From positions 42,108 through 106,107 of the forward strand of contig JAFGFL010000091.1 of the NCBI GenBank assembly GCA_016931055.1: DNA of 64,000 nt. The letters run 5' to 3'. Positions 11,749-60,543 of the stretch are shown in pieces; positions within the stretch are counted from its first letter, which is position 1; every line of letters begins with the position of its first letter. This stretch comes from Candidatus Omnitrophota bacterium. Its GTDB lineage: Bacteria; Omnitrophota; Gorgyraeia; Zapsychrales; Zapsychraceae. A model generated the notes under the pieces. It had not been told where the DNA came from. It ran no database searches and saw nothing but the letters and a program-made list of their open reading frames with translations. The translations under genes were made by a program, and so were the position numbers.

Positions 11749-11758
11749 GGGAGGAAGT

Positions 11759-22623: not shown

Positions 22624-24410
22624 CTCAAAGGAAAACAATGAACGCTTTCAAATTTATTCATGATATTTTTGCCAAGTTCCCGGCTTTAATCATCCAGAGT
22701 ATTGTTCTTCAGGTCATGGTGAGCATTTTAGGCGCGTGCTCTCTGGTTGTTGTAAGCCCTTTGGTTGATGTGTTAACAAACGCCGGTGCCGGTCAGGTCA
22801 GCTCATTAACGCGGAAAGTTTTTGATGTTTTTGCGTTTATCGGAGTTTTTCCGTCATTAAAGGGTTGGTTGCTGATATTCTTTGGTTTTGTTTTCTTGAC
22901 CAGCGTTCTTCAAATAATCGCGTGGCGGTCCATTATGCAGGTTAAGTATACAATGCTTCAAGACTTGATGCGGAACACGTTTGAAGATTTCTTCAAGGCG
23001 CAATGGTATTTCTTCAGCAGCGGGAAACAAGGGACATTAATCAATACCTTCTCCCGGGAACTGACGGTCATTGGAGACGCTTTCAGTTCAGTCGCGCGTT
23101 CTTTTGTCGGGATCATTCAAATGATTATTTTCTTGTTTGTGCCGGTATATATTTCATGGCAGGTCACGTTAATCAGTTTTGGGGTGGCGACTGTCTTCGT
23201 CATTCCGTTCTTCCTTCTGGGAAAACACAATTATAGGCTGGGATTGATGAACACATCAACAGCCAACGAATTTATGGGGATCATCCACGAAAATCTCAGC
23301 TTGACCAAAATCATGCTTGGGTTTGGAAACCAATTCAAAGGGGTGGAGAGTTTAGACCGGGCATTTGGAAAACACAAGAAAGCGGCCGTTGATTCTCTGG
23401 TTATTTCGGAGGCGTGCATATTGTTGTACCGGCCATTTGCCGTTTTTGTCATTATGGCGGCGCTTTTTTCGGCTCAAAAATTCAATGTGCCTCTTTCGGA
23501 GATAATGGTGTTGATCCTTGCGCTGTTTCAAGCGGCCTTGGCCGTCAACAGGCTTGTTCAGGAAAAGAATAAGCTGGAGAACTTCTTGCCCAGTTATGAG
23601 CAGATCGAATCTCTGCGGGCGCGAGCCAGAACGATGAAGCAGGCTTCTGGGAAGATTGAATTCGCCGGTTTCAAGAAGGAATTAAGGGTCGAGAAGGTAT
23701 CATTTGCTTATCCCCAGCATCCGGACGTCTTGCGCGATATTAATATTTCCATTCCGAAGGGGCAAATGATCGCTTTTGTCGGAAAATCAGGGGCGGGTAA
23801 ATCAACATTGATTGATATTATCATGGGATTTTATGAACCGATAAAGGGAAGTGTTTCTTTCGACGGCATGCCTTTACAGGAATTTAATGTCGATTCTTAC
23901 CGAAGGCACGTCGGATATGTTCCCCAAGAGAGCGTTCTGTTCAATGCCAGTATCCGGGACAACTTGTTATGGGCCAAACCGGACGCAACGGACGAAGAGT
24001 TGAGGAATGCGTGTCGGTTGGCTTTTGCGGATGAGTTCATTGATAACCTTGCCGAGAAATACAACACGCTGGTGGGAGACCGAGGGGTCCGCTTGTCGGG
24101 TGGCCAAGTGCAGCGCATTGCTTTGGCTAGGGCGTTATTACGCCGTCCGGACCTTCTCATTCTTGATGAGGCTACAAGCGCGCTGGATACTCATTCCGAA
24201 CGGGTGATCCAGAAAGCCCTGGAAAACATCTTGCATTCGACAACGGTTATTGTTGTTGCTCATCGGCTTTCAACAATTAAGAAAGCGGATTGTATCTATG
24301 TGTTGGACAGCGGCTGCATTATCGAACAAGGGACCTATTCAGTCCTTGTCGAAGACAATAACGCTTATTTCAATTCGATGGTCAAGCTCCAAGAACTCGG
24401 GGTTTCTTGA
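22620..24410 (+). CDS. ABC exporter, fused transmembrane and ATPase domains (MsbA/PglK-type)
   Basis: N-terminal half hydrophobic with about 6 TM segments; Walker A GKSGAGKST, signature LSGGQVQRIALARAL, Walker B LILDEATSALD, H-loop VAHRL. Confidence 0.85.
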   Translation: MTQRKTMNAFKFIHDIFAKFPALIIQSIVLQVMVSILGACSLVVVSPLVDVLTNAGAGQVSSLTRKVFDVFAFIGVFPSLKGWLLIFFGFVFLTSVLQIIAWRSIMQVKYTMLQDLMRNTFEDFFKAQWYFFSSGKQGTLINTFSRELTVIGDAFSSVARSFVGIIQMIIFLFVPVYISWQVTLISFGVATVFVIPFFLLGKHNYRLGLMNTSTANEFMGIIHENLSLTKIMLGFGNQFKGVESLDRAFGKHKKAAVDSLVISEACILLYRPFAVFVIMAALFSAQKFNVPLSEIMVLILALFQAALAVNRLVQEKNKLENFLPSYEQIESLRARARTMKQASGKIEFAGFKKELRVEKVSFAYPQHPDVLRDINISIPKGQMIAFVGKSGAGKSTLIDIIMGFYEPIKGSVSFDGMPLQEFNVDSYRRHVGYVPQESVLFNASIRDNLLWAKPDATDEELRNACRLAFADEFIDNLAEKYNTLVGDRGVRLSGGQVQRIALARALLRRPDLLILDEATSALDTHSERVIQKALENILHSTTVIVVAHRLSTIKKADCIYVLDSGCIIEQGTYSVLVEDNNAYFNSMVKLQELGVS

Positions 24411-25873
24411 TGAAGAAGATGCGAATTATTCCCAGACTAGATGTCAAAGGCCCCAATGTGGTTAAGGGAATCCAGTTGGAGGGTTTAAGGGTGGTCGGTA
24501 AACCTTCCGATCTTGCTCGGAAATATTATAACGAAGGGGCCGATGAGTTGATCTACATTGATATTGTGGCGAGTCTCTATGGACGAAACAATCTCGCGCA
24601 TATCATTGAGGAAACGATCAAAAAGGATGTTTTTATCCCCATTACGGTTGGAGGCGGTATTCGTAGCGTTGAGGATATTGACAAAATATTGCGGTCCGGT
24701 GCTGACAAAGTCGCGATTAACACCGCGGCAGTCAGGAATCCTGAACTCTTAAAGGAGGCCGTGCGCGTGTTTGGTTCTTCGACCATTGTTCTTTCGGTTG
24801 AGGCGAAGAAGATTTCCGATGGAAAGTGGGAGGCTTATGTTGATAACGGAAGAGAGCGAACGGGATTAGACGTTATTGATTGGATAAAGAAAGCGGTAGG
24901 ATTGGGTGTCGGTGAAATTCTCGTTACGTCGGTTGACCGGGATGGTACGCGCTTAGGATTTGATGGCCAATTGATTGATGCGGTTACGTCTGTGGTTTCT
25001 GTCCCTGTCATTGCGTCCGGAGGGGCGGGGGAAATAGGTCATGTGGCTCAGTGTATGGAAAACAAGAAATTGGATGGGATAGCGATTGCCAGTATGTTTC
25101 ATTATGGCGAGTGTACTGTTGGCGAATTGAAGGAAAAACTTTCCCAAGAGCATAGTGATCGAATCAAACGACCTAGCCACAGGGATAGGTTTTCGGAAGA
25201 TAAAGTCGATGCGAATGTATCTATTGTTGATTATCGATTGGGGAATCTATGTAGCGTGACTAATGCGTTTCGGCAGATTGGGGCGAATCCACGGTTGATT
25301 GATACTCCGCAACAGGTCTTGGATTCGCGTTATCTAGTTCTTCCCGGTGTAGGATCGTTTGAAGAGGGAATGAAACATTTGAGAAAAAACAATCTTGATC
25401 AGGCTATTGCGGAATATGTGAACGCGGGCAAACCCTTGCTAGGCATATGTCTCGGAATGCAGTTACTGATGACTAAGAGCAGTGAGTTCGGAGAATATTC
25501 AGGACTTGATCTGATTGAAGGGGAAGTGCTCAAATTTGAAGAAAATATCAGCATAGGACAAGAAGGTTACAAGATTCCTCATGTTGGTTGGAATTCCGTA
25601 TTTTGCAACCAAGATTGGAATGGAACAATCTTGGAGCCTCTGGAAGACGATATGGGGGCCTATTTTGTCCATTCGTATTATGTTCAGCCTAGAAACCGCG
25701 AGAATATCCTTGCGGTAACAGATTATTTTGGCCATCAATTCTGCTCTGTTATAAGAAAAGGGAATGTTTATGGATGTCAGTTTCATCCGGAAAAAAGCGG
25801 TCAAGAGGGGCTTGCGATATTAAGGGCATTTGTAAAGATTCGTCAAAAAGAAGGAGTGCTTAATGTGCGGTGA
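24407..25873 (+). CDS. fused imidazole-glycerol-phosphate-synthase-like cyclase (HisF-like) and glutamine amidotransferase (HisH-like); WbuZ-WbuY type
   Basis: N-terminal half IIPRLDVKG..VVKG, ITVGGGIRS, VAINTAAV (HisF barrel). C-terminal half VLPGVGSFEE, ICLGMQLL (class I GATase Cys), GCQFHPEKS (His). Order is HisF then HisH in one 488-aa protein. Confidence 0.8.
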   Translation: MMKKMRIIPRLDVKGPNVVKGIQLEGLRVVGKPSDLARKYYNEGADELIYIDIVASLYGRNNLAHIIEETIKKDVFIPITVGGGIRSVEDIDKILRSGADKVAINTAAVRNPELLKEAVRVFGSSTIVLSVEAKKISDGKWEAYVDNGRERTGLDVIDWIKKAVGLGVGEILVTSVDRDGTRLGFDGQLIDAVTSVVSVPVIASGGAGEIGHVAQCMENKKLDGIAIASMFHYGECTVGELKEKLSQEHSDRIKRPSHRDRFSEDKVDANVSIVDYRLGNLCSVTNAFRQIGANPRLIDTPQQVLDSRYLVLPGVGSFEEGMKHLRKNNLDQAIAEYVNAGKPLLGICLGMQLLMTKSSEFGEYSGLDLIEGEVLKFEENISIGQEGYKIPHVGWNSVFCNQDWNGTILEPLEDDMGAYFVHSYYVQPRNRENILAVTDYFGHQFCSVIRKGNVYGCQFHPEKSGQEGLAILRAFVKIRQKEGVLNVR

Positions 25874-27092
25874 AGCGCTTGAAACGCAGACTGAAACAAA
25901 GTATGGATTACCCAAAGAGGTTATCTATTGTAAACGATGTGTTATTTCAAATCAGAGGCCGCAATCAACGGTTGAGTTTAAGAACACTTCGGTCGAAAAG
26001 AAAAAGACGATCGCATTTGGAGAAGACGGGATCTGTGATGCCTGCCGATACGCTGAATACAAGGAAACAAAAATTGACTGGACCAAACGGAAAAAAGAGT
26101 TGGAGGCCCTGTGCGATCGTTATCGACGGGATGACGGGTATTGGGATTGCGTGATCCCCGCGAGCGGCGGGAAAGACAGTTCTTTCACGGCGCATACCTT
26201 AAAGTACAGATTTGGGATGCATCCGTTGACGGTCACATGGGCGCCCCATGAGTATACGGAAAGGGGATGGCAGAATTTGCAAGGGATGATCCATTCGGGT
26301 TTGGATAATGTCCTCATCAATGTCAACGGGAAAGTCCATCGTTACCTGACCAAATTAGCGTTCCTGAATTTAGGACATCCGTTTCAGCCGTTTATCATCG
26401 GGCAAAAGTTTGTGGGGCCCAAAACGGCGTTGCTTCGGGATATTCCCCTTATTTTCTATGGAGAAAACCAAGCTGAATACGGTAATGCGATTGGTGAAAA
26501 TGAAAGACCGACGATGGATCCAAAGTTCTTTTCAGCTGAAAAAAGCGATTACGTTGATGTCCATCTGGGTGGCGTTTCCGGCGCGGATCTTCTTAAAGAC
26601 CACGGGCTGACAAAAAATGACCTCGAGATGTATATGCCTCCTTTAAGGAAGGACATCGACGCCAAAGGAGTCCAGGTCCATTATCTGGGGTATTATTTGA
26701 AATGGGACCCGCAAGAGTGTTTTTATTATGCGGCCAAACACACGGGATTTCAGCCTAATTCCGAAAGGACGGAAGGAAGCTATTCAAAATACAGCAGTAT
26801 TGACGATAAAATTGATGTGCTGCATTATTTTACAACGATGGCCAAATTCGGGATTGGGCGGGCGACGTATGATGCGGTTCAGGAGATCCGAAATGGAAAG
26901 ATCACCCGGGAAGAAGGGGTTGCTCTGGTTCGGAAATACGACATGGAATTTCCACAAAAATATTTCCGGGATTGCCTGAAATATCTTGATATCACTGAAG
27001 AGGTATTTTGGGAAACAATTGAAAAGTTCCGCTCTTTACACTTATGGGAAAAGAAAGACGGCCAGTGGGTGTTGAAATATCAGGTTTTTTAA
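25863..27092 (+). CDS. N-acetyl-sugar amidotransferase (WbuX / PseA / LPS-biosynthesis PP-loop family)
   Basis: N-terminal Cys cluster CKRCVISNQRP..CDAC; PP-loop VIPASGGKDSS; AAGGAG RBS 8 nt upstream. Confidence 0.75.
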   Translation: MCGEALETQTETKYGLPKEVIYCKRCVISNQRPQSTVEFKNTSVEKKKTIAFGEDGICDACRYAEYKETKIDWTKRKKELEALCDRYRRDDGYWDCVIPASGGKDSSFTAHTLKYRFGMHPLTVTWAPHEYTERGWQNLQGMIHSGLDNVLINVNGKVHRYLTKLAFLNLGHPFQPFIIGQKFVGPKTALLRDIPLIFYGENQAEYGNAIGENERPTMDPKFFSAEKSDYVDVHLGGVSGADLLKDHGLTKNDLEMYMPPLRKDIDAKGVQVHYLGYYLKWDPQECFYYAAKHTGFQPNSERTEGSYSKYSSIDDKIDVLHYFTTMAKFGIGRATYDAVQEIRNGKITREEGVALVRKYDMEFPQKYFRDCLKYLDITEEVFWETIEKFRSLHLWEKKDGQWVLKYQVF

Positions 27093-27108
27093 ACACGTGG
27101 AGAGGTCA

Positions 27109-28155
27109 ATGGACAATGTGATTGATATTGCAGGGCGCTTGATCGGGAAGGATTATCTTCCGTTTGTGATTGCGGAAATTGGTATTAATCATGAGGGAGA
27201 CATGGACAAGGCCATCCGGATGGTGGATGATGCCAAAGCGGCCGGTTGTGAATGTGTCAAGTTCCAATGCCATGTGATTGAGGATGAAATGGTCCCCGCG
27301 GCAAAATCTGTTATTCCCGGGAATACGACTGAGAATATCTGGGACATCATGGCCAGATGCGCATTGACGGAAAAAGAAGATATCCGGCTGAAGAAATATG
27401 TTGAGTCGAAGAATATGATCTATCTTTCGACGCCGTTTTCCCGCGCGGCTTCCATAAGGTTGGAGAAGATGGGTGTCGCGGCCTATAAGATTGGGTCGGG
27501 GGAGTGTAACAATTATCCGCTAATTGAACACATTGCTTCCTATGGGAAACCGGTGATCCTAAGCACGGGAATGAATGACGTGTCTTCTATTAAGCCTGCG
27601 GTCGGGATTCTTAGGAAATCAAGAATTCCTTACGCCTTGATGCATTGCACATCCATATATCCGACGCCTTACAGTAAAGTACGGTTGGGGGCGTTAACTA
27701 TTCTTCAGAAAACTTTTTCGGATGCTGTCGTTGGATTAAGTGACCATTCTATGGGCATTTATACATGTCTGGCTTCGGTGGTTTTAGGAGCAAGCATTCT
27801 GGAAAAACATTTCACTTCGGATATAAGCTGGCCAGGGCCCGATGTGCCTATATCCATGGATCCGACGGATTTGAGAAACTTGGTGGAAGGGGCACGCGCT
27901 ATTCATCAGGCTTTAGGCGGGAACAAAGCGATCCTTCCGGAAGAGAAACCTGCGATTGATTTTGCGTACGCGACGGTTGTTTCCATTCGCAATATTGTCA
28001 AAGGTGAATCTTTGACGCGCGAGAATATCTGGGTCAAACGGCCCGGAACGGGACGGTTATTGGCGAAGGATTTTAGTCGTTTGTTAGGCAAGAAGGTAAA
28101 ACGCAATATTGCTGCCAATCAGCATATTCAACCGGAGGATGTCATTGGACTTTGA
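27109..28155 (+). CDS. nonulosonic acid synthase, NeuB/PseI/LegI family (copy 1)
   Basis: FVIAEIGINHEGD, CVKFQ, C-terminal SAF domain (VVSIRNIVKGESLTRENIWVKRPGTG); the ATG at 27109 lies inside the track ORF that starts at a GTG at 27097. Confidence 0.8.
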   Translation: MDNVIDIAGRLIGKDYLPFVIAEIGINHEGDMDKAIRMVDDAKAAGCECVKFQCHVIEDEMVPAAKSVIPGNTTENIWDIMARCALTEKEDIRLKKYVESKNMIYLSTPFSRAASIRLEKMGVAAYKIGSGECNNYPLIEHIASYGKPVILSTGMNDVSSIKPAVGILRKSRIPYALMHCTSIYPTPYSKVRLGALTILQKTFSDAVVGLSDHSMGIYTCLASVVLGASILEKHFTSDISWPGPDVPISMDPTDLRNLVEGARAIHQALGGNKAILPEEKPAIDFAYATVVSIRNIVKGESLTRENIWVKRPGTGRLLAKDFSRLLGKKVKRNIAANQHIQPEDVIGL

Positions 28156-29122
28156 TCTGCGACAGTACAGGGCGCTTGTGACCGGGGCTTCGGGGGTTTT
28201 AGGATTGCGTTTAAGTGAGCAATTGCTTAACGCCGGAGCCGAAGTCGTTGGATTCGATCTGGATGGAATGAGTAAACCGCTGCGGACTTTGTCAGGAACT
28301 CATGAAAAGGCGAAAATGATCAGTGGAAATATGTTGGATATGGCCTCGGTGTACGAAGCTGTCAGGATATTGAATCGGCAATCAGGCCGAAAGAGGGCCG
28401 TGTTTCATCTCTCTGCGATGAGTGACGCGAACCAATGCGACGCCGATCCCGAAGAAGCTTTTCGGCAAAATGTTGAGGCGACCGTGAATCTTATGCAGGT
28501 ATGTTCTCAGGAAGGTGTTCAGCGGGTCATATTTCCATCGACGGCTTATGTCTATGGTTCACTGTACAACGAGCTGATCAAGGAGGAGTATGCGATTCAT
28601 CCGGAAAGCGTTTATCCTTTGACAAAACTTTTAGCTGAACAAACGATCCAAGGATACGGAAATATGAACGTGATGAGCTGTGATATTGTCCGGATCAGCA
28701 ATATCTACGGGTCTGGTTCTAAATCAAATACGATCTTAGGGACCATTATGTTCCAAGCTGAGAAGAAAGGCGCGATCTTTCTGCAAAATCTTAAACCGGT
28801 TAGAGATTTTATCTATATTGATGATGTCGTTGACGGATTGAGCAGAATTCTTTTGGCCGGCGATGAGCCAGGGAGCCGTGTATATAATTTGTCAACAGGC
28901 AAAGGAACCTCTGTTGGCGAGTTGGCGCGGGTGTTTTGTCAGTTGAAAGGTCTGTCACCCGAGATGGTGAAATGCAGTGGCTCATCAGGGAAGGAATCAA
29001 GACTGGTTCTTTCCAACGATCTCCTTGAGCGGCGAATTGGTTGGAAGCCGCGATATTCAGTGCTTGAAGGCATACAAAAGACGATCAATGAGTGGGCGGG
29101 GAGGAAATATGCCGAAGCGTAA
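28139..29122 (+). CDS. NAD-dependent epimerase/dehydratase family protein
   Basis: RALVTGASGVLGLRLSEQLL; YPLTKLLAE (YxxxK); start ambiguous (ATG 28139 or TTG 28145 after GGAGG). Confidence 0.6.
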   Translation: MSLDFDLRQYRALVTGASGVLGLRLSEQLLNAGAEVVGFDLDGMSKPLRTLSGTHEKAKMISGNMLDMASVYEAVRILNRQSGRKRAVFHLSAMSDANQCDADPEEAFRQNVEATVNLMQVCSQEGVQRVIFPSTAYVYGSLYNELIKEEYAIHPESVYPLTKLLAEQTIQGYGNMNVMSCDIVRISNIYGSGSKSNTILGTIMFQAEKKGAIFLQNLKPVRDFIYIDDVVDGLSRILLAGDEPGSRVYNLSTGKGTSVGELARVFCQLKGLSPEMVKCSGSSGKESRLVLSNDLLERRIGWKPRYSVLEGIQKTINEWAGRKYAEA

Positions 29123-30296
29123 AATCGCGATATTCACGGGAAACCGCGCTGAGTATGGGCTCCAGTATCCGATCATCAAAGCGGTCGATGTTCATCCAAA
29201 GCTCGAATATTATCTGCTGGTCTCAGGAGCGCATTTGCAGGAGGATTTCGGGTATACCGTCCGGGAAATAGAAGCCAATGGTTTTAAAGTTTATCGTGAA
29301 GTGAAATTGACGATGGGCCGTGATGACCTTTTCGGGACGGTCCAGGCCATCGGTTCGGGAATTCTGAGTTTAAGCGTTATTCTCGATGAATTGAAACCGG
29401 ATATTCTGGTTGTCTACGCGGATCGTTTTGAAGGTTTTGCTGCTGTTATTACCGGAACGCAGATGGGAATACCGACGGCCCACATTGAAGGCGGGGATGT
29501 GACTGAAGGCGGGGCCCTTGATGATTCGGTGCGCCACGCGATGACCAAATTGTCGCATTTGCATTTCACGACGAATAGTGATGCGACAGGGAGAATCAAG
29601 AAACTCGGCGAAGAGCCATGGCGAGTGCACACCGTCGGGTTTCCAGCCATTGATCTGATCTCGGAGAAGAATTACGCTAAACCAGAGGAGCTGGTGGTCA
29701 AATACGGCATCGATTTGGCGCGGCCCGTTGTCTTGTATACGCAACATTCCATCGCGACTGAATTTTCGGACGCGGGTGCCCAAATTGAACCGGCATTGCA
29801 AGCCTTGACAAGGCTGGCGAAGGAAGGGGTCCAGGTTATCATGACTTTTCCCAATAACGACGCGGGAAGCGGGCTCATAATCGATAAGCTCAAGCAGGCT
29901 GGAGCTGAAGCGAAACAAAATATTCAATTGCACGCCAGCTTGGGCCGGTACAACTATCATGGGTTTTTGGCTCATTGCGGAAATGGGGGCAAGGGGGTTT
30001 GTGTTGGGAACTCCTCAAGCGGGATCAAGGAAACGCCTGCGTTCGGATGTCCTACCGTGAACATCGGTGATCGGCAAAGTGGAAGGCTCCGAGCGGAAAA
30101 CGTGCTTGACGTCGGTCACGATGCACAAGCGATTTATCGGGCGATCAGAAAATGCATCGATAACAAACAATTCCGTCAACGGTGCGCCACCTGCAAAAAC
30201 CCTTATGGCACAGGGGATGCGGGTAAAAAGATCGCGGATGTTTTGGCCACAGTGCCCCTTGATCTGAAGCTTTTGCAAAAAAAGATTACTTATTGA
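29109..30296 (+). CDS. UDP-N-acetylglucosamine 2-epimerase (hydrolysing), NeuC/LegG-like (copy 1)
   Basis: KIAIFTGNRAEYG, DILVVYADRFE, HIEGGDVTEGGALDDSVRHAMTKLSHLHF; ATG at 29109 with GGGAGGAAAT RBS. The track ORF from 28977 is a spurious 5' extension through the preceding gene. Confidence 0.75.
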   Translation: MPKRKIAIFTGNRAEYGLQYPIIKAVDVHPKLEYYLLVSGAHLQEDFGYTVREIEANGFKVYREVKLTMGRDDLFGTVQAIGSGILSLSVILDELKPDILVVYADRFEGFAAVITGTQMGIPTAHIEGGDVTEGGALDDSVRHAMTKLSHLHFTTNSDATGRIKKLGEEPWRVHTVGFPAIDLISEKNYAKPEELVVKYGIDLARPVVLYTQHSIATEFSDAGAQIEPALQALTRLAKEGVQVIMTFPNNDAGSGLIIDKLKQAGAEAKQNIQLHASLGRYNYHGFLAHCGNGGKGVCVGNSSSGIKETPAFGCPTVNIGDRQSGRLRAENVLDVGHDAQAIYRAIRKCIDNKQFRQRCATCKNPYGTGDAGKKIADVLATVPLDLKLLQKKITY

Positions 30297-30350
30297 GTGT
30301 TATGACACGAACCTAAGTGGGTTTGGTCGTTTATGAGATAGGAGGAAGGG

Positions 30351-30524
30351 ATGGAGGATAATCTGCTAAAAGGGAATTTTGAAGTGAAGAAGCCGATTAA
30401 GCTGGGAGATCAGGAGAAAGAAAAATCTGTCGGCGAAGAACTCAAAAAGAGGGCTTTGGGCACCTTAGGCGGGAGCATGGTTTATATGGAACGGAAGCAT
30501 TTTACCTGGGATGGGGATGAATGA
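30351..30524 (+). CDS. small hypothetical protein (57 aa), translationally coupled to the downstream Maf-like gene
   Basis: Strong SD GGAGGAAGGG immediately before the ATG at 30351; sequence MEDNLLKGNFEVKKPIKLGDQEKEKSVGEELKKRALGTLGGSMVYMERKHFTWDGDE; its TGA stop overlaps the next ATG (ATGA); below the ORF-track length cutoff. Confidence 0.35.
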   Translation: MEDNLLKGNFEVKKPIKLGDQEKEKSVGEELKKRALGTLGGSMVYMERKHFTWDGDE

Positions 30525-31552
30525 TCAATTCAAGCCAAACATTATTCTTTGATCGTATTGTTGACCAGATTTCTGAAATCGGGCTGGATTTTCATGTTAA
30601 TAACATCTTTCAGCATGCCGAGAAGAATTCGGCAGATGTTAAACGGTCCATCAAACAGCTGCCCGCGCTTAAAGGAAATAAAGCGCGCACAGGCATCGTT
30701 ATCAGCGCCGGGCCGAGTCTCCGCAAAAAGAATTCGATCCAAAGAATATTTGACTCCGATTATCAAGGGTCGATTATCGCTATTGATGCTGCTTACATTG
30801 CCTGTCTGAAGGCGGGCCTTATTCCGGATTATGTGGTGACGATGGATCCCAATCCAACCAGAATGGTCCGGTGGTTCGGTGATCATGATTTTGAAAAGAA
30901 TACGGGAAATGATGATTACTATACACGGCAAGACCTGGATGTGGATTTCCGCCGTAATAGTCAGGAACAGAACAGGCGGCATATTGAGCTTGTTAATCAG
31001 CATGGACCTCTCAGTAAGGCTATTATTGCGACATCGGCCCCCAGGAATGTTGTCACCAGGATAAAGGAGGCTCGCCTGGACATGTATTGGTGGAATCCGC
31101 TTATGGATGATCCTACTAGGCAGGGAAGCCTGACGCGCAGACTCTATGAGATGAACGGACTTCCGTGCATCAACACCGGGGGAAATGTGGGGACGACGGC
31201 CTGGATTTTTGCCAATTCGGTCCTGAAACTCCCGCGCGTCGCGATTGTCGGGATGGACCTTGGTTACTATATGGACACGCCGATTGAAATGACGCAGACG
31301 TATTATGAATTGATCCACCATTTGGGGGGACGGGAAAATATCAAGGGATGTTTCAAGGAATATGAATTTCCCCTTGACCAGCAGAAGTATTATACCGATC
31401 CGACTTATTTTTGGTACCGCAAGAATTTGCTGGAGATGCTGGAAAGAGCGCCAGGAAAGACAGTCAATTGCACTGAAGGAGGAACGTTATTCGGTCCGCA
31501 TATCGAATGCGTCCGTCTCGACCGGTTTTTGGAAGAATCTGCTCATGGCTAA
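30521..31552 (+). CDS. Maf-family / DUF115 (MptE-like fold) protein; putative nonulosonic-acid glycosyltransferase
   Basis: GIVISAGPSLRKK...IIAIDAAYIACLKAGLIPDYVVTMDPNP matches the conserved core of motility-associated-factor glycosyltransferases; 343 aa, shorter than Campylobacter Maf proteins. Confidence 0.5.
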   Translation: MINSSQTLFFDRIVDQISEIGLDFHVNNIFQHAEKNSADVKRSIKQLPALKGNKARTGIVISAGPSLRKKNSIQRIFDSDYQGSIIAIDAAYIACLKAGLIPDYVVTMDPNPTRMVRWFGDHDFEKNTGNDDYYTRQDLDVDFRRNSQEQNRRHIELVNQHGPLSKAIIATSAPRNVVTRIKEARLDMYWWNPLMDDPTRQGSLTRRLYEMNGLPCINTGGNVGTTAWIFANSVLKLPRVAIVGMDLGYYMDTPIEMTQTYYELIHHLGGRENIKGCFKEYEFPLDQQKYYTDPTYFWYRKNLLEMLERAPGKTVNCTEGGTLFGPHIECVRLDRFLEESAHG

Positions 31553-33143
31553 AATATTAATAATCAATCCGGTTATTCGCGAAGATGATGAACCCAAGCA
31601 CATCCCTTACGGGCTTGCTTTGTTAGCCAGTATCGCGATGGGACAAGGGCATCTTGTCCAGGTTTATGATGAGAACGCGTGGAGAAAAGGCGATGAGGTG
31701 ATCGCAAAAGTCTGTCAGGCTGATTGTTGGGACGCGATCGCCACCGGTGGATTAACGACGACTTACCGGTCGATTAAAAAGATATTGAACATATGCAAAG
31801 CAAATGCGCCGGAGGCCTTTGTGATCGCGGGTGGGGGGTTCTTCACGAGCATGCCTCATGAAATGATGCGATGGATCCCGGAAATCGATTTGGGGGTGAT
31901 CGGAGAAGCTTTTGTCACCTGGCCGGAGGTTTTAGGAAAAATCGACTCGAAGGATTTTGATTTTTCCCGTACGTTGGGAGTGTGTTATCGGGAGGGTAAT
32001 GAAACAGTACTAACGGGAGTCCGTCCCAATATCAAGGACTTGGACAGGCTGCCGTATCCCGCGTGGGATTTGTTTCCATTGGATATTTATTTCAGAAATT
32101 CCGCATTGTCTTTAAGCGAGGTGGCTTTCCGTTCCAAGAGACGCATGGACATTATGGGAAGTTTAGGGTGCGGCATGGTTTGCAAGTTTTGCTGGCATTT
32201 GGGGACGACGGGCGACATGATCGTTGACGAAAATGATGAAGGGAAAAAGGATGTGCGTTTTACTTACGGGCGTAATATCCGTTATTTTAGCCCCCGCTAT
32301 ATCGTGGAAATGGTGAAAACCCTGGTGCGTAAATATGGGGTTGATTTTGTTTATTTTATCGATGAGAATTTTATGACGATGGATATGGCGAGCGGACGGA
32401 CTTGGTTGAAGGAACTTTGTGAATGTTGGATCAAAGAAGGGTTACAGCCTATGTCGAGGCGCCAGGGATTGCCGGATGAAGAAAATGAGGGAGGGGTGTT
32501 TTGGTCCGGGACGAGCCATGCGGGCCTCGCGTACAGGGATATCCTGGATTTAATGTATCGGGCGGGTTGCGCTTCTTTGGTTTACGGGACCGAGTCGTTC
32601 GATCCGGAAATCCTTAAGAACCTCGGAAAAGGGGTCAATCAGCGACAGAATATCGATGCGCTTAAGACATGCATGGATTCAGGAATTGTTCCCATTCCGA
32701 ATATTATGATCGGTTTCCCTGAGGAAACATTTAAGAGTATCCGCACGACGATTGAATGGATGATTAAGTTAGGCATCCATAGCAAGCCCCATTTTGCCAC
32801 TCCCTATCCAGGATCGGAGTGGTACTACACCTATAAAGACAGTATTATCGAGCAATATAACGGTGATCTGGAGGCTTTTATTAAAGAACTTGGTGATGCG
32901 ATGAAGCTGACGGCCGTCATATCACATAATTTTTCTCCGTTGCAACTTCTTGGTTTGCAGCAAATTGTCATGCAGCGTGACCTGCGGTTGCTGGACCTGG
33001 CGGAGAAGCACTGGGGAGAGGCAGGTACTTTGACCAAGACAATCGCGGAACCCAGGAATTCATTTAACATCATCAAAAGAAAAATCCAGGCTCCTATAGA
33101 GGGGCAAAAAGAAAGAAATAACCCAAATCATGTTAATCGCTGA
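31545..33143 (+). CDS. cobalamin(B12)-binding-domain radical SAM enzyme (class B) #1
   Basis: N-terminal B12-binding fold KILIINPV...IPYGLALLASIAMGQGHLVQVYDEN; radical SAM cluster CGMVCKFC (CxxxCxxC). True ATG at 31545 (ATGGCTAA overlap with the upstream stop); the track ORF from 31362 is an artefactual extension overlapping the Maf-like gene. Confidence 0.75.
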   Translation: MAKILIINPVIREDDEPKHIPYGLALLASIAMGQGHLVQVYDENAWRKGDEVIAKVCQADCWDAIATGGLTTTYRSIKKILNICKANAPEAFVIAGGGFFTSMPHEMMRWIPEIDLGVIGEAFVTWPEVLGKIDSKDFDFSRTLGVCYREGNETVLTGVRPNIKDLDRLPYPAWDLFPLDIYFRNSALSLSEVAFRSKRRMDIMGSLGCGMVCKFCWHLGTTGDMIVDENDEGKKDVRFTYGRNIRYFSPRYIVEMVKTLVRKYGVDFVYFIDENFMTMDMASGRTWLKELCECWIKEGLQPMSRRQGLPDEENEGGVFWSGTSHAGLAYRDILDLMYRAGCASLVYGTESFDPEILKNLGKGVNQRQNIDALKTCMDSGIVPIPNIMIGFPEETFKSIRTTIEWMIKLGIHSKPHFATPYPGSEWYYTYKDSIIEQYNGDLEAFIKELGDAMKLTAVISHNFSPLQLLGLQQIVMQRDLRLLDLAEKHWGEAGTLTKTIAEPRNSFNIIKRKIQAPIEGQKERNNPNHVNR

Positions 33144-34950
33144 GCAATCTGACCAAGATCAACAACAGCATCCGTCAATCAACAAAGCAGTGAAAACCCT
33201 GTTTATTACCTTGCCCCAAAGAGATACGCCCGGGACATATCCGCCTTATGGCGCGTTAACGGTCATGAGCTATCTGAAGCGAGCGGGTTTTTCTAATGTC
33301 ACTCTTTACAATATCGATCTTATGCGGCCGACGATGAAGGAGGCTATAAATTATATCGCCGATTTTAATCCGGAAGTTTTATGTATTAGCGCCCCTGTTT
33401 CAACAGCTTACGGGAATTGCAAACAGGTGACTCTTGAGATCAAGAAGTGGTTGCCGCAAACGAAAATTGTTCTGGGAGGGAATTTGGCGGCGAGTGCGGA
33501 GATTATTCTCAGAAAGACGGGGGTGGATATCTGTGTTTTAGGTGAAGGGGAGATTGCCTGCGCTCAGCTTCTTGAAAAATTGTCACAACATTGTCCGATC
33601 AACGAGTTGAAGGCCATTAAAGGGTTGGGATTTCTTGATGAGAAAGGCGTGTTTATCAACACGGGCTACGCACAGCAGCTCCTGATGGATCAGGTCTATG
33701 ATATTGATTGGGATGTGTGGGATGACTTTTCTTTAAAGAAGTGTTTCCGTCAATTAAAGGAAATAGATCCCAAGTCTACTTACTACAAATATTACACGGG
33801 GATCGGCGGCCAGATCAGCAGTGACAAACGGGAAACCAGGATAGCTATCCTTCCTTGCTCAAAGGGGTGCGTCGCGCGCTGTACGTTTTGTCATCGGTGG
33901 CAAAAAGGCATTCGTTTTATCCCTCCAGAGATCATGATCCAGAGGATTAAATTACTTATGGACAGTTATCAAGTCGGAGTTGTCAACATATCTGATGAGT
34001 GTTTTGGCGCTGATGTTAAATGGTTGCATGAATTCTGCGCTTTGATCAAACCCTTGGGGTTGATTTGGGTTGTGGGCGGGATGAGGGTCAAACAGATCAC
34101 CTCTGAGATCGTTTCAATGATGAAAGACGCCGGTTGCCGTTCCATTGTTTACGGAATGGAGACCGGCAGCAAAAGGATGATTGAGGTAATGGAAAAACGG
34201 GCATCTATTGAAGATAACGAACGGGCTTTTCGGTTGACCCTGGAGGCAGGTTTGCAGACAATCCCCCAATTGATCATCGGCATGCCCGGTGAAAATCCGG
34301 AGACGATCAAGGAATCCGCCGATTTTATTTCTAGGAATATGATTTTGGATAAACACCAAAATCCTCGTGAAGTCAGCATTAACTATGCTCAGGCTTTGCC
34401 TGGGACCCCTCTTTATGAATTCGCCCGGCAGAAGGGGTTGATCGGGAAAGGTTTGGATGAGGAAGAGCGGTATCTTTTGCATATTTCTGACCGGAATGCG
34501 TGTGATGATGAAACGACGCTCAATTTTACCGATTATCCATATCTGACGCTGGTTTCCTGGAGGAACATTATTCTGGCCACGATGAAGTATCGATATGCGA
34601 AAGCGTTCGGCATTTCCCATTATAACAAGGTTATGTTTCCTGATGGCCGGCCCGGTCTCTGGTGTTTGCTTAAGAGCCGGAATTTCGGTCTGCTTCTCGA
34701 CCGTTTTCCCCGGTTGACTTTCAGGTTAAGACATTGGATGGAGTTCTTCAAATTTATTGATATTTGGAAGAAACGAGGGCTGAAGATCGCGGGTGGTTTT
34801 CTGGTTGAATTTTTTGTTGTTCATTTAAGGCGGTGCCGGAAAAAACATTCGGATTTCGAATATAAATCATTACGGAAGATCATCGGACAAGACGCCTCTT
34901 ATCCTTGCGAGGAAAGCGATCCGATGGCTTCCCTGCGAAAAGGCAGGTAG
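33130..34950 (+). CDS. cobalamin(B12)-binding-domain radical SAM enzyme (class B) #2
   Basis: B12-fold N-terminus (LFITLPQ..YPPYGALTVMSYLKRAGF..); CVARCTFC (CxxxCxxC); 606 aa; overlaps the upstream gene by 14 bp. Confidence 0.75.
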   Translation: MLIAEQSDQDQQQHPSINKAVKTLFITLPQRDTPGTYPPYGALTVMSYLKRAGFSNVTLYNIDLMRPTMKEAINYIADFNPEVLCISAPVSTAYGNCKQVTLEIKKWLPQTKIVLGGNLAASAEIILRKTGVDICVLGEGEIACAQLLEKLSQHCPINELKAIKGLGFLDEKGVFINTGYAQQLLMDQVYDIDWDVWDDFSLKKCFRQLKEIDPKSTYYKYYTGIGGQISSDKRETRIAILPCSKGCVARCTFCHRWQKGIRFIPPEIMIQRIKLLMDSYQVGVVNISDECFGADVKWLHEFCALIKPLGLIWVVGGMRVKQITSEIVSMMKDAGCRSIVYGMETGSKRMIEVMEKRASIEDNERAFRLTLEAGLQTIPQLIIGMPGENPETIKESADFISRNMILDKHQNPREVSINYAQALPGTPLYEFARQKGLIGKGLDEEERYLLHISDRNACDDETTLNFTDYPYLTLVSWRNIILATMKYRYAKAFGISHYNKVMFPDGRPGLWCLLKSRNFGLLLDRFPRLTFRLRHWMEFFKFIDIWKKRGLKIAGGFLVEFFVVHLRRCRKKHSDFEYKSLRKIIGQDASYPCEESDPMASLRKGR

Positions 34951-34959
34951 AAAGCGGTT

Positions 34960-35682
34960 ATGTTCAAGTCAAAGAAGATTTTGTCGTTTATCGGGGCACG
35001 GGCGGGATCAAAAGGCCTCAAGAACAAGAATATTATTGATTTAGCGGGAAAGCCGCTTGTCGGCTGGACCATCGACGCTTCTCTCGGGTCAAAATATATT
35101 GACCGGACTATAGTTTCAACGGATGGGGAGGAAATTGCCCGTTTCGCAAAAGCATCAGGCGCCGATGTTCCTTTTTTACGTCCTAAAGAATTGGCGGATG
35201 ATGAATCATTGCTTGATGGGGCGATTCAACATGGTGTTCAATGGCTGAGAGAACATGAACAAACGGTTTACGATTATCTTCTTCTTTTGCAGCCGACATC
35301 TCCTTTGAGGACGTCAGCCCATATCGATGCGGCGATAGAATATTTTTTTGAGCATGTGCGGTCTGACCGGGACATGTTGATATCGGTGACTCCTGCGCCG
35401 ATGAAAACGGGCTGGCTTATGCATCAAAATGCTGCTGGTTATGTCCAGTTCAGCCTGGATTTCACCCGGGGTAAACATCGCAGGCAGGAAATGCCTCAGA
35501 TGTATTTTCCGAATGGTTTCATCTATTTTGGCCCTGTGGGGATTATGGAGCGCATTGGCTCGGTTACGGAGATGATGATTCCGTATGTTACAAGTAAGGA
35601 TATATCGGTGGATGTTGATTCACTGGATGACTTGAAGGAAGCAGAGGCATTGATCCAAGGAAGAAGGAGAGCGAATCAGTGA
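34960..35682 (+). CDS. CMP-nonulosonate synthetase (acylneuraminate cytidylyltransferase NeuA/LegF/PseF family)
   Basis: ILSFIGARAGSKGLKNKN (IPARxGSKGIPxKN-type motif), LQPTSPLR. Confidence 0.8.
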   Translation: MFKSKKILSFIGARAGSKGLKNKNIIDLAGKPLVGWTIDASLGSKYIDRTIVSTDGEEIARFAKASGADVPFLRPKELADDESLLDGAIQHGVQWLREHEQTVYDYLLLLQPTSPLRTSAHIDAAIEYFFEHVRSDRDMLISVTPAPMKTGWLMHQNAAGYVQFSLDFTRGKHRRQEMPQMYFPNGFIYFGPVGIMERIGSVTEMMIPYVTSKDISVDVDSLDDLKEAEALIQGRRRANQ

Positions 35683-37568
35683 AAAGAGAAAACATTCTGC
35701 TTGTAGAGACTGGTTCGATGCCGTTCTGGAGAACTTTTGGATATGATGATGTTTATGCTCTTTACGGCAACTCCACCAAAGGCAAGAAACTTCCCTGCGA
35801 TTTCATGAAAATGGAAGAAGGGCTTTTATCTAATTATAAAGCCGGTCAAATCATTGATTGGGTTTATGGACTTTTCGTTGATACACCTGAGAACCAATTC
35901 TTGGCTGAAATCATGGCGGATGAACAGGGCGGCCGGATTCTTAAAAAAGCGCTGTTGTGGGAATTGGGAAGAATTTGTCATTCGATGATTTTAGCGGAGA
36001 AATTCAGGAAAGATTATGGGTTTAATCAAGTCATCGATTTCATCCCGCGGCCTTTTTTCTATGCGCTTTTTTGTTTAATTCAAAAAAAAGAAGGCGTGCT
36101 TCCGGAGGGCATCCGTATTCCTCAATGGTATCTTCGGAAAATGAAGAGACGTGAAACCATGAAGAGTTGGATCTACGCCGTGGGTTTAGCGCTTTATCCG
36201 GTGTTAATCGGTGTCACGATGTCAGGGAAGCCGCGGACGAGAAAAGAATATTCATACGCGGTCCATATGTGGGACAGCTGGATCAGTACTTACGGGCCCA
36301 AAAGCGAATATCGCATGCAGTTTCTTGAAGGTTCCCGAAGTGTCAGCAAGGACAACGCCCTTTATTTCATTGATCAAAAGGCAGGCAAAGAGAATATTCG
36401 ACAAATTCAAACGAGTGGTTATGAATGCTGTTATTTCAAAAACATGGTCAGATCATTCAACGGTAGGACGTACTGGAAAGATATTTATCCTCAGGTAAGA
36501 AAACATATAAAGGCTCTGTTATCCTCTGTGGGACAGAATGGTTTATTTGCTGAGACATGTTTCAAGGCGGTCGTTTCATATATCCATTGGAAAATATTTT
36601 TCCATTTTTACGGAATAAAAGTGTTTCTTTATGTCCAGGACCCCTGCGATATTGCGGGGACCTTGCTCCAAAAGCGGCATAAGGCGCGAAACGTCTTTAT
36701 TTATTACTCGACGCAATACGATTGTGTTGAACGGGAAAACATGAACACTTTTACGGAAACGTACTACGGGCATATGATGGCGACGGCCATGATTTCAAGC
36801 CGCATGTCCAACGATTATTTTAGGAGAAACAACGAGCTGATTGGAGATTACAGGGAATGCGGGCTGATCTGGTCTGACATTGTGTTTGCGATGAAGAATG
36901 ATCTTCAATGGCAAGCCAGGGTAAAAAAAGAGATCGGATTGCCTTCCGGGAGAATTGTCCTAGGGGTTTTCACTCCGGGGATTGGACGCGCCGGTTGTCT
37001 GACGGAAGACGAAGGGTTCAGAATGATTGATGACATTTATCGTCTGATCGAATCGAATGAACAGTATTGCGTGGTTCTCAGGTATCGGCAGGTTGGCCTG
37101 TGGACCGAAAATGGCGCTTTGCGAAAGAAATTGGAACAACTGATTGACCATGAACGGGTTTTTGATGCGCATCGATTGGCGCCGAAATATCAGGCATATC
37201 AACTGATGGGTTGTTGTGATCTGGTGATAGGGGGGTTTGCCTCCAGCGTGCCGATGGAATCCGTCGCTGGTGGGATAAGGACTGTATGTTATGTGCCGGA
37301 ACGGTTAAAAAAGAATGTTTTTGTAATCAATTCGTTCCCGAAGTTTTGCCCGAAGGATTTCAAACAATTGAATGAGTATGTGCACTTTTGGCTTGATGAA
37401 TGTGATGACAGGGCATTTGCTGATTTCCAGGATGCTTATGTGAAGCCTCATGTTGACAGTTATTGTGATGGGCAAGCGACGAAAAGGCTGGGCGCGTTGC
37501 TTGCGGAAATTGAAAAAGAGGCCAGGGGAAGTGTTTTGCCGATGGAGATGGAAACTGTTTCCGTGTGA
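35679..37568 (+). CDS. large uncharacterised protein; candidate novel glycosyltransferase
   Basis: 629 aa with no recognised motif; C-terminal GRIVLGVFTPG...VLRYRQ...CDLVIGGFASSVPMESVAGGIRTV is arranged like a GT-B C-domain; 4-bp overlap with the CMP-synthetase gene. Confidence 0.3.
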   Translation: MKRENILLVETGSMPFWRTFGYDDVYALYGNSTKGKKLPCDFMKMEEGLLSNYKAGQIIDWVYGLFVDTPENQFLAEIMADEQGGRILKKALLWELGRICHSMILAEKFRKDYGFNQVIDFIPRPFFYALFCLIQKKEGVLPEGIRIPQWYLRKMKRRETMKSWIYAVGLALYPVLIGVTMSGKPRTRKEYSYAVHMWDSWISTYGPKSEYRMQFLEGSRSVSKDNALYFIDQKAGKENIRQIQTSGYECCYFKNMVRSFNGRTYWKDIYPQVRKHIKALLSSVGQNGLFAETCFKAVVSYIHWKIFFHFYGIKVFLYVQDPCDIAGTLLQKRHKARNVFIYYSTQYDCVERENMNTFTETYYGHMMATAMISSRMSNDYFRRNNELIGDYRECGLIWSDIVFAMKNDLQWQARVKKEIGLPSGRIVLGVFTPGIGRAGCLTEDEGFRMIDDIYRLIESNEQYCVVLRYRQVGLWTENGALRKKLEQLIDHERVFDAHRLAPKYQAYQLMGCCDLVIGGFASSVPMESVAGGIRTVCYVPERLKKNVFVINSFPKFCPKDFKQLNEYVHFWLDECDDRAFADFQDAYVKPHVDSYCDGQATKRLGALLAEIEKEARGSVLPMEMETVSV

Positions 37569-44037: not shown

Positions 44038-44103
44038 ATCAAACAATGAAATCAATGAGAACAGGATTAATGACTAATGTATGTCAATGGGAAAGGGCTT
44101 TAA

Positions 44104-46901: not shown

Positions 46902-46904
46902 AAT

Positions 46905-60542: not shown

Positions 60543-60543
60543 T

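Follow-up and report, generated by a model that had tools for sequence, protein, structure and literature searches.

Nonulosonic acids (NulOs), which include sialic, legionaminic, and pseudaminic acids, decorate flagella, capsules, lipopolysaccharide, and S-layers, and they shape immune evasion and recognition by phages and predators. To our knowledge, much of the chemical diversity of NulOs in environmental bacteria has not been traced to genes. The described systems closest to the one reported here include the archaeal pterin-biosynthesis enzyme MptE, the peptide-based pathways for pyrroloquinoline quinone (PQQ) and mycofactocin, and the B12-binding radical S-adenosylmethionine (radical SAM) enzymes. 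They also include the Maf enzymes, which glycosylate protein Ser and Thr residues with NulOs (bioRxiv 10.1101/2020.06.03.131540). In a 64,000-nt stretch of DNA from a Candidatus Omnitrophota bacterium (contig JAFGFL010000091.1, positions 42,108 to 106,107 of the forward strand), here called the window, we analyzed a 57-amino-acid (57-aa) open reading frame (ORF) and the gene that it overlaps, which encodes a 343-aa Maf-like enzyme. We find that the small protein and the Maf-like enzyme belong to an obligate trio, of which the third member is a B12-binding radical SAM enzyme that we call rSAM1. Our tentative interpretation, held with some doubt, is that the small protein is a dedicated substrate or scaffold on which the Maf-core enzyme modifies a Ser residue by means of cytidine monophosphate (CMP)-NulO and rSAM1 carries out an alkylation or rearrangement. 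The genes of the cassette are as follows.

30341 to 30350, forward strand: Shine-Dalgarno region of the small ORF, GGAGGAAGGG, read directly from the sequence and abutting the ATG at 30351
30351 to 30524, forward strand: small ORF, 57 aa, from the ATG at 30351 to the TGA at 30522 to 30524; conserved, with no family model
30521 to 31552, forward strand: Maf-core/MptE-like (PF01973) enzyme, 343 aa, assigned from Pfam, homologues, an AlphaFold (AF2) model, and Foldseek
31545 to 33143, forward strand: rSAM1, B12-binding radical SAM enzyme, 532 aa, with the Pfam domains B12-binding and Radical_SAM; third member of the cassette

The small ORF is a conserved gene

Two features for which the original prediction singled out the small ORF, a strong ribosome-binding site (RBS) right before its ATG and stop/start coupling to the downstream gene, are both present in the sequence, the TGA overlapping the ATG at 30521 as ATGA. 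The prediction also described the ORF as missed by the ORF track. This is true only of that length-thresholded track, since the ORF is already annotated at NCBI, where the entry with 100% identity reads [quoted passage not shown]

An alignment of 20 homologues of the 343-aa protein (alignment A1) was used to fetch 80 genome loci, which come from Omnitrophota, Planctomycetota, Elusimicrobiota, Gamma- and Alphaproteobacteria, Bdellovibrionota, Spirochaetota (Leptospiraceae), Nitrospirota, Chloroflexota (Dehalococcoidia), Methylomirabilota, and Latescibacterota. When the 57-aa peptide was used in tblastn searches, matches with 40 to 62% identity (best E value, 2e-20) were found across phyla, and in essentially all loci with upstream DNA the match is a short ORF directly 5' of the enzyme gene. 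Of 78 loci, spread over at least 11 phyla, 75 have the small ORF and the enzyme gene side by side. In most of the 78 loci they overlap or are separated by a gap of a few nucleotides, the commonest overlaps being 4, 11, 17, and 1 nt, and a GGAG-type RBS precedes most of the homologous small ORFs. Between closely related Nitrospira pairs, the ratio of nonsynonymous to synonymous substitution rates (dN/dS) of the small ORF is 0.07 to 0.27, which indicates purifying selection. A profile search of 5.8 billion proteins yielded 2,388 members of the family, every one labeled "hypothetical" and without a Pfam domain, and an exhaustive hidden Markov model search of 1.84 billion representatives yielded 251 clusters. 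The 150 clusters listed of these 251 are stand-alone proteins of 43 to 164 aa, except for one chance match to a long repetitive protein (P0299; 4,632 aa), in which 16 matches to GGSxVYV occur by chance in an unrelated sequence. No Pfam or NCBIfam model matches the family.

Based on this conservation at the protein level across phyla and on the purifying selection, we conclude that positions 30351 to 30524 are a genuine gene that encodes a real 57-aa protein; conservation in related genomes was one of the checks that the original prediction had set. The opposite view, which denies that the ORF is a gene and ascribes the RBS-like sequence and the ATGA overlap to chance, could appeal only to the small size of the ORF. 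With a dN/dS far under 1 and both position and RBS conserved, we regard that view as already refuted.

The small protein, the Maf-like enzyme, and rSAM1 form an obligate trio

The most likely start of rSAM1 is the ATG at 31545, which places the start of its gene 8 nt inside the gene for the 343-aa enzyme (ATGGCTAA overlap). The coupling therefore spans three genes, not two. rSAM1 matches PF02310 at 48 bits and PF04055 at 52 bits, and the three Cys residues of its CxxxCxxC motif (C209, C213, and C216) are invariant. Beyond these, only C342 is invariant, and the rSAM1 alignment contains no SPASM-type extra cysteines. No NCBIfam model comes near its cutoff (the best reaches 86 bits versus 481), and the matches to solved structures are weak (AprD4, 6fd2, E value of 5e-7; TokK, 7kdx, E value of 1.7e-4).

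By tblastn, rSAM1 is found in 76 of the 80 loci that were fetched via the Maf-like gene, with a median identity of 61% and nearly always directly downstream. As an independent test, we scanned metagenomes with rSAM1 alone as the seed (alignment A4) and counted the 53 loci that have at least 1,300 nt of upstream sequence. The Maf-like gene is present in 52 of the 53, and the small ORF is also present in 52 of the 53. The original prediction of a coupled pair was thus correct in that the linkage of the small ORF to the PF01973 gene is real, and it overlooked the third partner.

The exceptional loci are informative. In locus L095, the small ORF is directly 5' of rSAM1 and there is no Maf-like gene within 5 kb upstream. 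In locus L074, from a marine member of the Dehalococcoidia, the cassette is dispersed and a single NulO cluster holds two 64-aa paralogues of the small protein (2194 to 2388 and 13756 to 13950); one of these ORFs is directly 5' of rSAM1, and the Maf-like gene stands alone, 5 kb away. Based on these two loci, we conclude that the tie of the small protein to the radical SAM enzyme is at least as strong as its tie to the Maf-like enzyme. Gene order is shuffled in L028, L074, and L078, and all three genes are still in the cluster. L165 has two sugar-modifying genes inserted between the Maf-like and rSAM1 genes. In L150, an MT-A70 DNA methyltransferase gene (DPPW motif) and a 175-aa ORF (970 to 2459) lie exactly between the small ORF and the Maf-like gene, which looks like a mobile element that has split the coupled pair. 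In a mirror-tree comparison over all loci, the small protein has a partial r of 0.51 with rSAM1 versus 0.23 with the Maf-like enzyme, while in clade I alone the values are 0.34 with the Maf-like enzyme versus 0.23 with rSAM1.

The 343-aa enzyme retains the Maf/MptE core

The motifs SAGPSL, IDAAY, and PDYVVTMDPNP, which the original prediction took as the Maf core, are all in the 343-aa translation, and the NCBI entry with 100% identity is named [quoted passage not shown] The protein matches PF01973 (MptE-like/DUF115/Maf_flag10) above the gathering threshold (60.4 bits versus a cutoff of 34.6), with the match limited to residues 35 to 113 and to profile positions 5 to 81 of 171, the first half of the profile. 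In contrast, its score with the NCBIfam PseD model NF050051 is below the cutoff (44.8 bits versus 670) and covers residues 41 to 126 only. An antisense ORF of 259 aa (30542 to 31321) was dismissed because it is contained in this strongly conserved sense gene.

More than 1,400 homologues of the 343-aa enzyme were found. All are 325 to 362 aa long (mostly ~335 to 355), and they are 52 to 73% identical even between phyla. Because these homologues are uniformly ~340 aa and alignment A1 has ~70 invariant positions, the sequences indicate a full-length, strongly constrained subfamily of its own rather than a truncated Maf. The earlier description of the protein as a half-size Maf is therefore not the right one, and by sequence the protein is at least as near to MptE.

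The AlphaFold model of the enzyme has a predicted local distance difference test (pLDDT) value of 89 and a predicted template modeling (pTM) score of 0.90. The top match of this model in a Foldseek search of the PDB is the Magnetospirillum Maf (5mu5; E value of 5e-6, probability of 1.00, 317 columns), with a template modeling (TM) score of 0.52 on the query and 0.30 on Maf. The second is the Methanocaldococcus jannaschii MptE/6-hydroxymethyl-7,8-dihydropterin pyrophosphokinase (HPPK) structure 8sd5 (E value of 7e-6, probability of 1.00), and ST8SiaIII sialyltransferases and thiamine pyrophosphokinases follow as weak matches. At the level of sequence profiles, MptE is closer (E value of 7e-8, residues 42 to 106 only) than Maf (E value of 0.08).

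In the Maf of Magnetospirillum magneticum, positions 324 and 415, together with a conserved Ser of the domain, are reported to be critical for activity, and the residue types at these two positions are given in reverse in the text of that study (bioRxiv 10.1101/2020.06.03.131540). In the weak Maf profile alignment, the invariant D109 (TMDP) of the 343-aa enzyme is opposite Maf position 324 and the invariant D246 (GMDLG) is opposite position 415; since the E value of this alignment is only 0.08, the correspondence leans also on the fold match. S62 and S66, in the region of the SAGPS loop, are invariant as well. The conserved Maf residues that the original prediction proposed to check are thus present, as far as so weak an alignment can place them, and the model supports the view that the Maf/MptE catalytic core is kept and that the N- and C-terminal domains of Maf are gone.

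The nearness to MptE has a bearing on the chemistry. The 343-aa enzyme might be no glycosyltransferase but a kinase, a pyrophosphokinase, or a nucleotidyltransferase, with Ser42 of the small protein or a sugar hydroxyl as the site that it phosphorylates or nucleotidylates, a proposal that overlaps with the other models of function considered here. Consistent with it, the M. jannaschii enzyme is the best sequence match among solved structures, the Foldseek E values of MptE and Maf are almost equal, and thiamine pyrophosphokinases are among the fold matches. However, the surrounding genes serve CMP-NulO synthesis and neither pterin nor thiamine metabolism, Maf gives the best Foldseek coverage, and sialyltransferases are among the fold matches too. 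We consider MptE-like chemistry improbable.

Predicted disorder and linear motifs in the small protein

Alignments of the small protein (A2 and A3) show an N-terminal (L/F)LKGN(F/Y)xVK motif, which is LLKGNF in the window copy, then a charged linker that varies in length and sequence, and a short amphipathic helix segment, (F)(K/E)(K/R)xAL. This is followed by an invariant Gly-Gly-Ser (GGS) and by (M/I)(V/A)(Y/F)V.(R/K)..L.W.G. In the window copy, GGS is G40, G41, and S42, and it is followed by MVYMER..(F)TW-DGDE. The tail is acidic or Lys rich and varies among homologues, both the length and the ending after the Trp being different, and the total length of the aligned homologues ranges from 55 to 81 aa. 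Only GGS is invariant in every small protein examined; K7, G8, N9, A35, and W53 are nearly so. The alignments contain no conserved Cys or His and no signal peptide. An AlphaFold prediction from a 47-sequence alignment has a pLDDT of 62, a pTM of 0.27, and one helix, at residues 27 to 38. The small protein is thus predicted to be a disordered peptide with linear motifs, not a domain. It is therefore unlikely to supply a domain that the enzyme lacks, which was one of the roles first suggested for it.

No fusion of the small protein to either enzyme was found in 80 + 80 loci, or among the 150 clusters listed of the 251, and a 1-nt frameshift would suffice to fuse the small ORF with the enzyme gene. 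An apparent fusion of a CMP synthetase with the small ORF in L069 is a frame artifact of two genes that overlap by ATGA. Several other identities for the small protein were tried and rejected. LysW-type amino-group carriers have a zinc-ribbon Cys motif and an invariant C-terminal EDWGE, the last Glu of which carries the substrate, while the small protein has no conserved Cys and its sequence after the Trp is variable in length and ending. The defining motifs of acyl carrier protein-like carriers and of pyruvoyl or glycyl-radical "spare part" proteins are absent from it. The segment GKSVYMDRRYPWDVEGDD of the full-length Colwellia Maf weakly resembles the C-terminal motif of the small protein (E values of 0.35 to 1.3). 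We judged this resemblance to be due to chance, as the four matches come from one orthologue and the segment is a core strand.

The helix followed by an invariant Gly-Gly resembles the double-glycine leaders known from other peptides. Read in that way, the small protein would be the precursor of a ribosomally synthesized and posttranslationally modified peptide (RiPP), with residues 1 to 41 as the leader and SMVYMERKHFTWDGDE as a core that is cleaved off, methylated by rSAM1, glycosylated, and released as a bioactive peptide or as a peptide-derived cofactor of the PqqA/MftA kind. The arrangement of the genes agrees with this, in that a short ORF adjoins the modifying enzyme or enzymes in 75 of 78 loci found via the Maf-like gene and in 52 of 53 found via rSAM1, and it is directly 5' of the radical SAM gene also in the split loci L074 and L095, the former of which has two precursor-like paralogues. 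rSAM1 has weak matches to models of RiPP C-methyltransferases (TIGR03975, 83 bits versus a cutoff of 282). On the other hand, the hydrophobic spacing is off that of a canonical double-glycine leader, the length of the tail after the Trp varies, and rSAM1 does not have the additional cysteines of the SPASM type. The cassette lies strictly within NulO operons and not in stand-alone clusters. Moreover, no C39 peptidase/ABC exporter, protease, or RiPP recognition element (RRE) protein is conserved nearby (an RRE inside the enzymes themselves was not searched for), and the ABC protein of the window does not have a C39 domain. Taken together, these observations make a RiPP precursor quite improbable.

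The cassette is embedded in NulO biosynthesis operons

Upstream of the cassette, the window has, in order, genes for a HisF/H-like protein and a WbuX/PseA-type amidotransferase, NeuB, a short-chain dehydrogenase/reductase (SDR), and NeuC. Downstream are a second B12-binding radical SAM enzyme, a CMP-sugar synthetase, an unknown 629-aa protein, and a PglD-like acetyltransferase. The features concerned are the following.

24407 to 25873, forward strand: HisF/HisH-like fusion, part of an acetamidino-forming module
25863 to 27092, forward strand: WbuX/PseA-type N-acetyl sugar amidotransferase, the other part of this module
27097 to 28155, forward strand: NeuB-type nonulosonate synthase (Pfam NeuB and SAF; NCBIfam NeuB_NnaB, 364 bits)
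28977 to 30296, forward strand: NeuC-type hydrolyzing UDP-N-acetylglucosamine 2-epimerase (NCBIfam NeuC_NnaA, 380 bits; Pfam Epimerase_2)
30302 to 30331, forward strand: hairpin GACACGAACC-TAAG-TGGGTTTGGTC within the 54 nt from the end of the NeuC-like gene to the small ORF
33130 to 34950, forward strand: second B12-binding radical SAM enzyme, 606 aa (Pfam); lineage specific and outside the universal cassette
34960 to 35682, forward strand: CMP-nonulosonate synthetase (cytidylyltransferase; Pfam CTP_transf_3, NCBIfam PseF-like)

The CMP synthetase gene is the commonest neighbor of the cassette and is adjacent to it in 61 of the 80 loci. Other recurrent neighbors encode NeuB- and NeuC-like proteins, a DegT aminotransferase, a PglD-like acetyltransferase, a 4,6-dehydratase, and a PtmE-like nucleotidyltransferase, which together are the gene set of the legionaminic acid type. 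The cassette is thus embedded in biosynthesis operons for NulOs of this type. The acetamidino-forming module accompanies it in ~15 loci. The 606-aa radical SAM enzyme has a true orthologue only in the closest relative, L001 (67%), and its other matches are cross-matches at ~22%. When all neighboring ORFs were clustered, only sugar pathway families emerged, and the cassette has no conserved association with a protease, peptide exporter, or regulator.

Two details of the sequence just upstream of the cassette concern gene boundaries and RNA structure. The listed GTG start of the NeuC-like ORF makes its first part (28977 to 29122) overlap the preceding SDR gene by 146 nt. Given this overlap and a NeuC domain that begins only at residue 48, translation probably starts farther downstream than the GTG. 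The gap that contains the hairpin is the only sizable intergenic gap of this stretch and lies just 5' of the RBS of the small ORF. The fold of the RNA from 30285 to 30365 has a free energy of −21.5 kcal/mol (z = −2.9 versus shuffled sequences) and forms a weak terminator-like site with a weak T-tract after it, so that the hairpin may be an mRNA-stabilizing or weak attenuator element.

As the original prediction stated, there is no flagellin gene in the window; none of the 57 long plus-strand ORFs of the 64-kb window has a flagellin domain in Pfam scans. Its proposal that the pair glycosylates a nonflagellar substrate is not a safe one, as in 11 loci (from Colwellia, Thalassotalea, Chromatiaceae, Methylobacter, and Ectothiorhodospiraceae) the cassette stands beside a full-length Maf of ~830 aa, which points to tailoring of the sugar. 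This Maf carries C-terminal tetratricopeptide (TPR) repeats (e.g., L009 at 10610 to 13093, L013, and L018). In one marine lineage, the cassette is downstream of genes for a Wzm/Wzt exporter. Based on these loci, the final glycosyl transfer is probably performed by enzymes other than those of the cassette, and the cassette is not bound to one type of glycoconjugate.

These observations also suit an alternative in which the small protein is an unmodified subunit or adaptor that folds onto both enzymes and bridges or activates them, and the enzymes would together tailor free NulO or CMP-NulO. An example would be a Fom3-like radical C-methylation of CMP-legionaminic acid, with the tailored sugar then used by other transferases. 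Stop/start overlaps through all three genes imply stoichiometric coproduction, and the cassette lies within sugar biosynthesis operons, between NeuC/NeuB and the CMP synthetase. The presence of a full-length Maf in the 11 flagellate loci, and of Wzm/Wzt elsewhere, leaves the final transfer to others, and no protease or exporter is linked. Disorder combined with two linear motifs would suit a tether that binds two partners. Against a subunit of this kind, no fusion to either enzyme occurs among more than 2,000 family members (among the matches listed, 150 of 251 clusters), and an invariant Gly-Gly-Ser in a flexible segment resembles a reaction site more than an interface. We know of no precedent for a B12-binding radical SAM or PF01973 enzyme that needs such a subunit. 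We consider this explanation possible and nearly as likely as the one in which the small protein is the substrate.

Other features of the window

All ~57 long genes of the window (1 to 64000) are on the plus strand with almost no intergenic space, making up one giant codirectional glycan island, and each of the 2-kb bins has a positive GC skew (+0.12 to +0.23). Three genes for B12-binding radical SAM enzymes (31545 to 33143, 33130 to 34950, and 44104 to 45741) lie in this island, and only the first belongs to the cassette. The third is between a second NeuB gene and a NeuC-like gene, in a second NulO set (43018 to 48137) with NeuB at 43018, a NeuC-like gene at 45738, and a DegT gene at 46905. 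To this second set also belong genes at 56643 to 58413, for a LegB-like dehydratase (56643) and a PtmE-like nucleotidyltransferase (57694); the first set is NeuB at 27097 with NeuC at 28977. Since there are two separate sets with a nonulosonate synthase, the source organism probably makes two different NulO sugars. Between the two sets, positions 38548 to 43005 encode a FabG-like SDR, an AMP-binding enzyme, a LuxE acyl-protein synthetase, and a LuxC acyl coenzyme A reductase, which may serve as an acyl-activating module in the making of an unusual N-acyl group. Six large ORFs of 395 to 655 aa have no Pfam match (7245 to 9212, 21313 to 22623, 35679 to 37568, 48128 to 49315, 55054 to 56712, and 60499 to 62034) and may be NulO transferases or polymerases. 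The one of 629 aa, directly after the CMP synthetase gene, is shared only with the closest relatives, L001 and L003. The genes from 424 to 20604 encode an HpcH-type aldolase, a second cytidylyltransferase, a SIS isomerase, a dehydroquinate (DHQ) synthase-like enzyme, split transketolase subunits, a fusion of a PfkB kinase with a cytidylyltransferase, an APH-type kinase, and two DegT aminotransferases, which suggests further unusual activated sugars, e.g., heptose or other higher-carbon sugars.

A possible role of the small protein as substrate

The original prediction included the idea that the small protein is a target or acceptor peptide, and this idea is viable. The mechanism that we favor would run as follows. 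The small protein would be an intrinsically disordered peptide on which both enzymes act, recognized through its N-terminal LLKGNF motif and through the helix that precedes Gly-Gly, and the reactive position would be the invariant Ser of GGS. The Maf-core enzyme, which would have retained the nucleotide-sugar-binding SAGPS loop and the Maf-aligned acidic residues for Ser modification, would place the NulO of CMP-NulO, supplied by the adjacent synthetase gene, onto this Ser, as Maf does on Ser and Thr of flagellin. The B12-binding radical SAM enzyme would then act by radical chemistry, alkylating or rearranging either the sugar so tethered or neighboring residues. The outcome might be a glycopeptide end product or a carrier-bound intermediate of a tailored NulO.

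We favor a substrate over a subunit because GGS is invariant and flexible and fusions are absent despite the overlapping reading frames, and because the peptide-first order of the operon (as for PQQ and mycofactocin) and the Ser/Thr specificity of the Maf family point in the same direction. In the complete form in which the Ser of GGS in a ribosomally made peptide of 55 to 80 aa is glycosylated by a minimal Maf-type transferase and the tethered sugar or the peptide is then alkylated or rearranged by the B12-binding radical SAM enzyme, we consider the scheme unlikely. If it is true, the cassette would represent a type of peptide-scaffolded sugar tailoring or peptide glycosylation that has not been described so far, and it would yield either a NulO-glycopeptide that is new and very widely distributed or, by a carrier-bound route, a modified (e.g., C-methylated) legionaminic acid.

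A number of observations weigh against the small protein as a substrate. Coupling implies ~1:1 synthesis, which is commoner for subunits than for substrates. The putative core is conserved as strongly as the putative leader, unlike in most RiPPs, no protease, exporter, or RRE is conserved with the cassette, and the peptide has no signal sequence or obvious destination. Since Ser-O-glycosides are not activated donors, a carrier would have to be unloaded in a release step, and the genes show no evident candidate for it. By sequence, the MptE pyrophosphokinase is at least as near to the enzyme as Maf is, and the chemistry may therefore not be glycosyl transfer. Finally, in the two split loci the small ORF stays with the radical SAM gene and not with the Maf-like gene, and the mirror-tree comparison favors rSAM1 over all loci and the Maf-like enzyme within clade I.

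Whichever of these roles applies, the cassette is among the most conserved unexplained parts of NulO clusters, its two enzymes being ~50 to 60% identical over more than 10 phyla. Its carriers include the abundant Nitrospira, Pelagibacteraceae, Omnitrophota, and Leptospiraceae and the cultivable Colwellia, Thalassotalea, and Methylobacter. A solution of its function would reveal either a NulO modification that is new, together with the enzymes behind it, or a peptide-dependent glycan chemistry of a new class, and annotation pipelines would gain a model for a small family that is now labeled "hypothetical" or missed.

Comparison with known systems

The Maf enzymes that we compared are those of Magnetospirillum magneticum (5mu5), PseD, PseE, and Maf4 of Campylobacter, and the Maf proteins of Geobacillus and Clostridium. 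Like them, the cassette enzyme has a PF01973 core with a SAGPS loop and invariant acidic residues opposite positions 324 and 415, has a Maf as its top structural match in the PDB, and is encoded in NulO clusters beside a CMP-NulO synthetase; the acceptors of true Maf enzymes are protein Ser and Thr. In contrast to their 600 to 830 aa, it has ~340 aa and is without the N- and C-terminal helical/TPR domains, as reflected in the TM score of 0.30 on Maf. Its identity to Maf is 14%, its score with the PseD model is far from the cutoff (44.8 versus 670 bits), and it has insertions of its own (RMVRWFGD...DDYxxRQDLD, YWWNPL, DPTYFWYR, and NCTEGGT). It is not bound to flagella: it is found in Pelagibacteraceae, Dehalococcoidia, and Omnitrophota, lineages without flagella also carry the family, and in loci with a flagellar island a separate full-length Maf is encoded, so that in 11 loci it stands beside a true Maf. 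It is also always accompanied by the small protein and the B12-binding radical SAM enzyme.

The archaeal MptE (M. jannaschii HPPK, 8sd5) is the best sequence match (E value of 7e-8) and shares the GPS loop, the D-G/A-A and PD motifs, the NxGG...GMDxG motif, and a single domain without the additions of Maf. However, MptE is ~230 aa and serves pterin biosynthesis, whereas the cassette enzyme is ~110 residues longer and occurs in a NulO context, with no pterin genes near it.

PqqA/PqqE of the PQQ pathway and MftA/MftC/MftF of the mycofactocin pathway resemble the cassette in that the operon opens with a tiny ORF, which often escapes notice, by a radical SAM gene and with a peptide sequence that is kept across phyla and is not hypervariable. 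The mycofactocin pathway also includes a glycosyltransferase-like enzyme, MftF. Unlike them, the cassette has no PqqD/RRE partner, SPASM domain, or peptidase, its radical SAM enzyme is of the B12-binding class, it is located inside a sugar operon, and the candidate reactive residue is an internal Ser and not a C-terminal Tyr, Val-Tyr, or Glu-Tyr.

Relatives of GenK, Fom3, and AprD4 have the same architecture as rSAM1, with a B12-binding domain and a radical SAM domain with CxxxCxxC, and rSAM1 differs from them as a separate subfamily (best NCBIfam score of 86 bits versus 481). We know of no characterized B12-binding radical SAM enzyme with a sugar or CMP substrate that needs a small protein partner. 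Fom3 acts on a cytidylylated substrate, and CMP-NulO is therefore a plausible substrate for rSAM1.

In full-text literature searches, in which the results for MptE-like and PF01973 were mostly noise, the cassette is undescribed and NulO clusters are not linked to B12-binding radical SAM enzymes or to small peptides. In the literature searched, a Maf-type enzyme of minimal size, a B12-binding radical SAM enzyme, and a tiny disordered protein had not been connected before. The enzyme classes themselves are already known; the trio as an obligate unit, the subfamily of minimal Maf enzymes, and the family of the small protein are undescribed.

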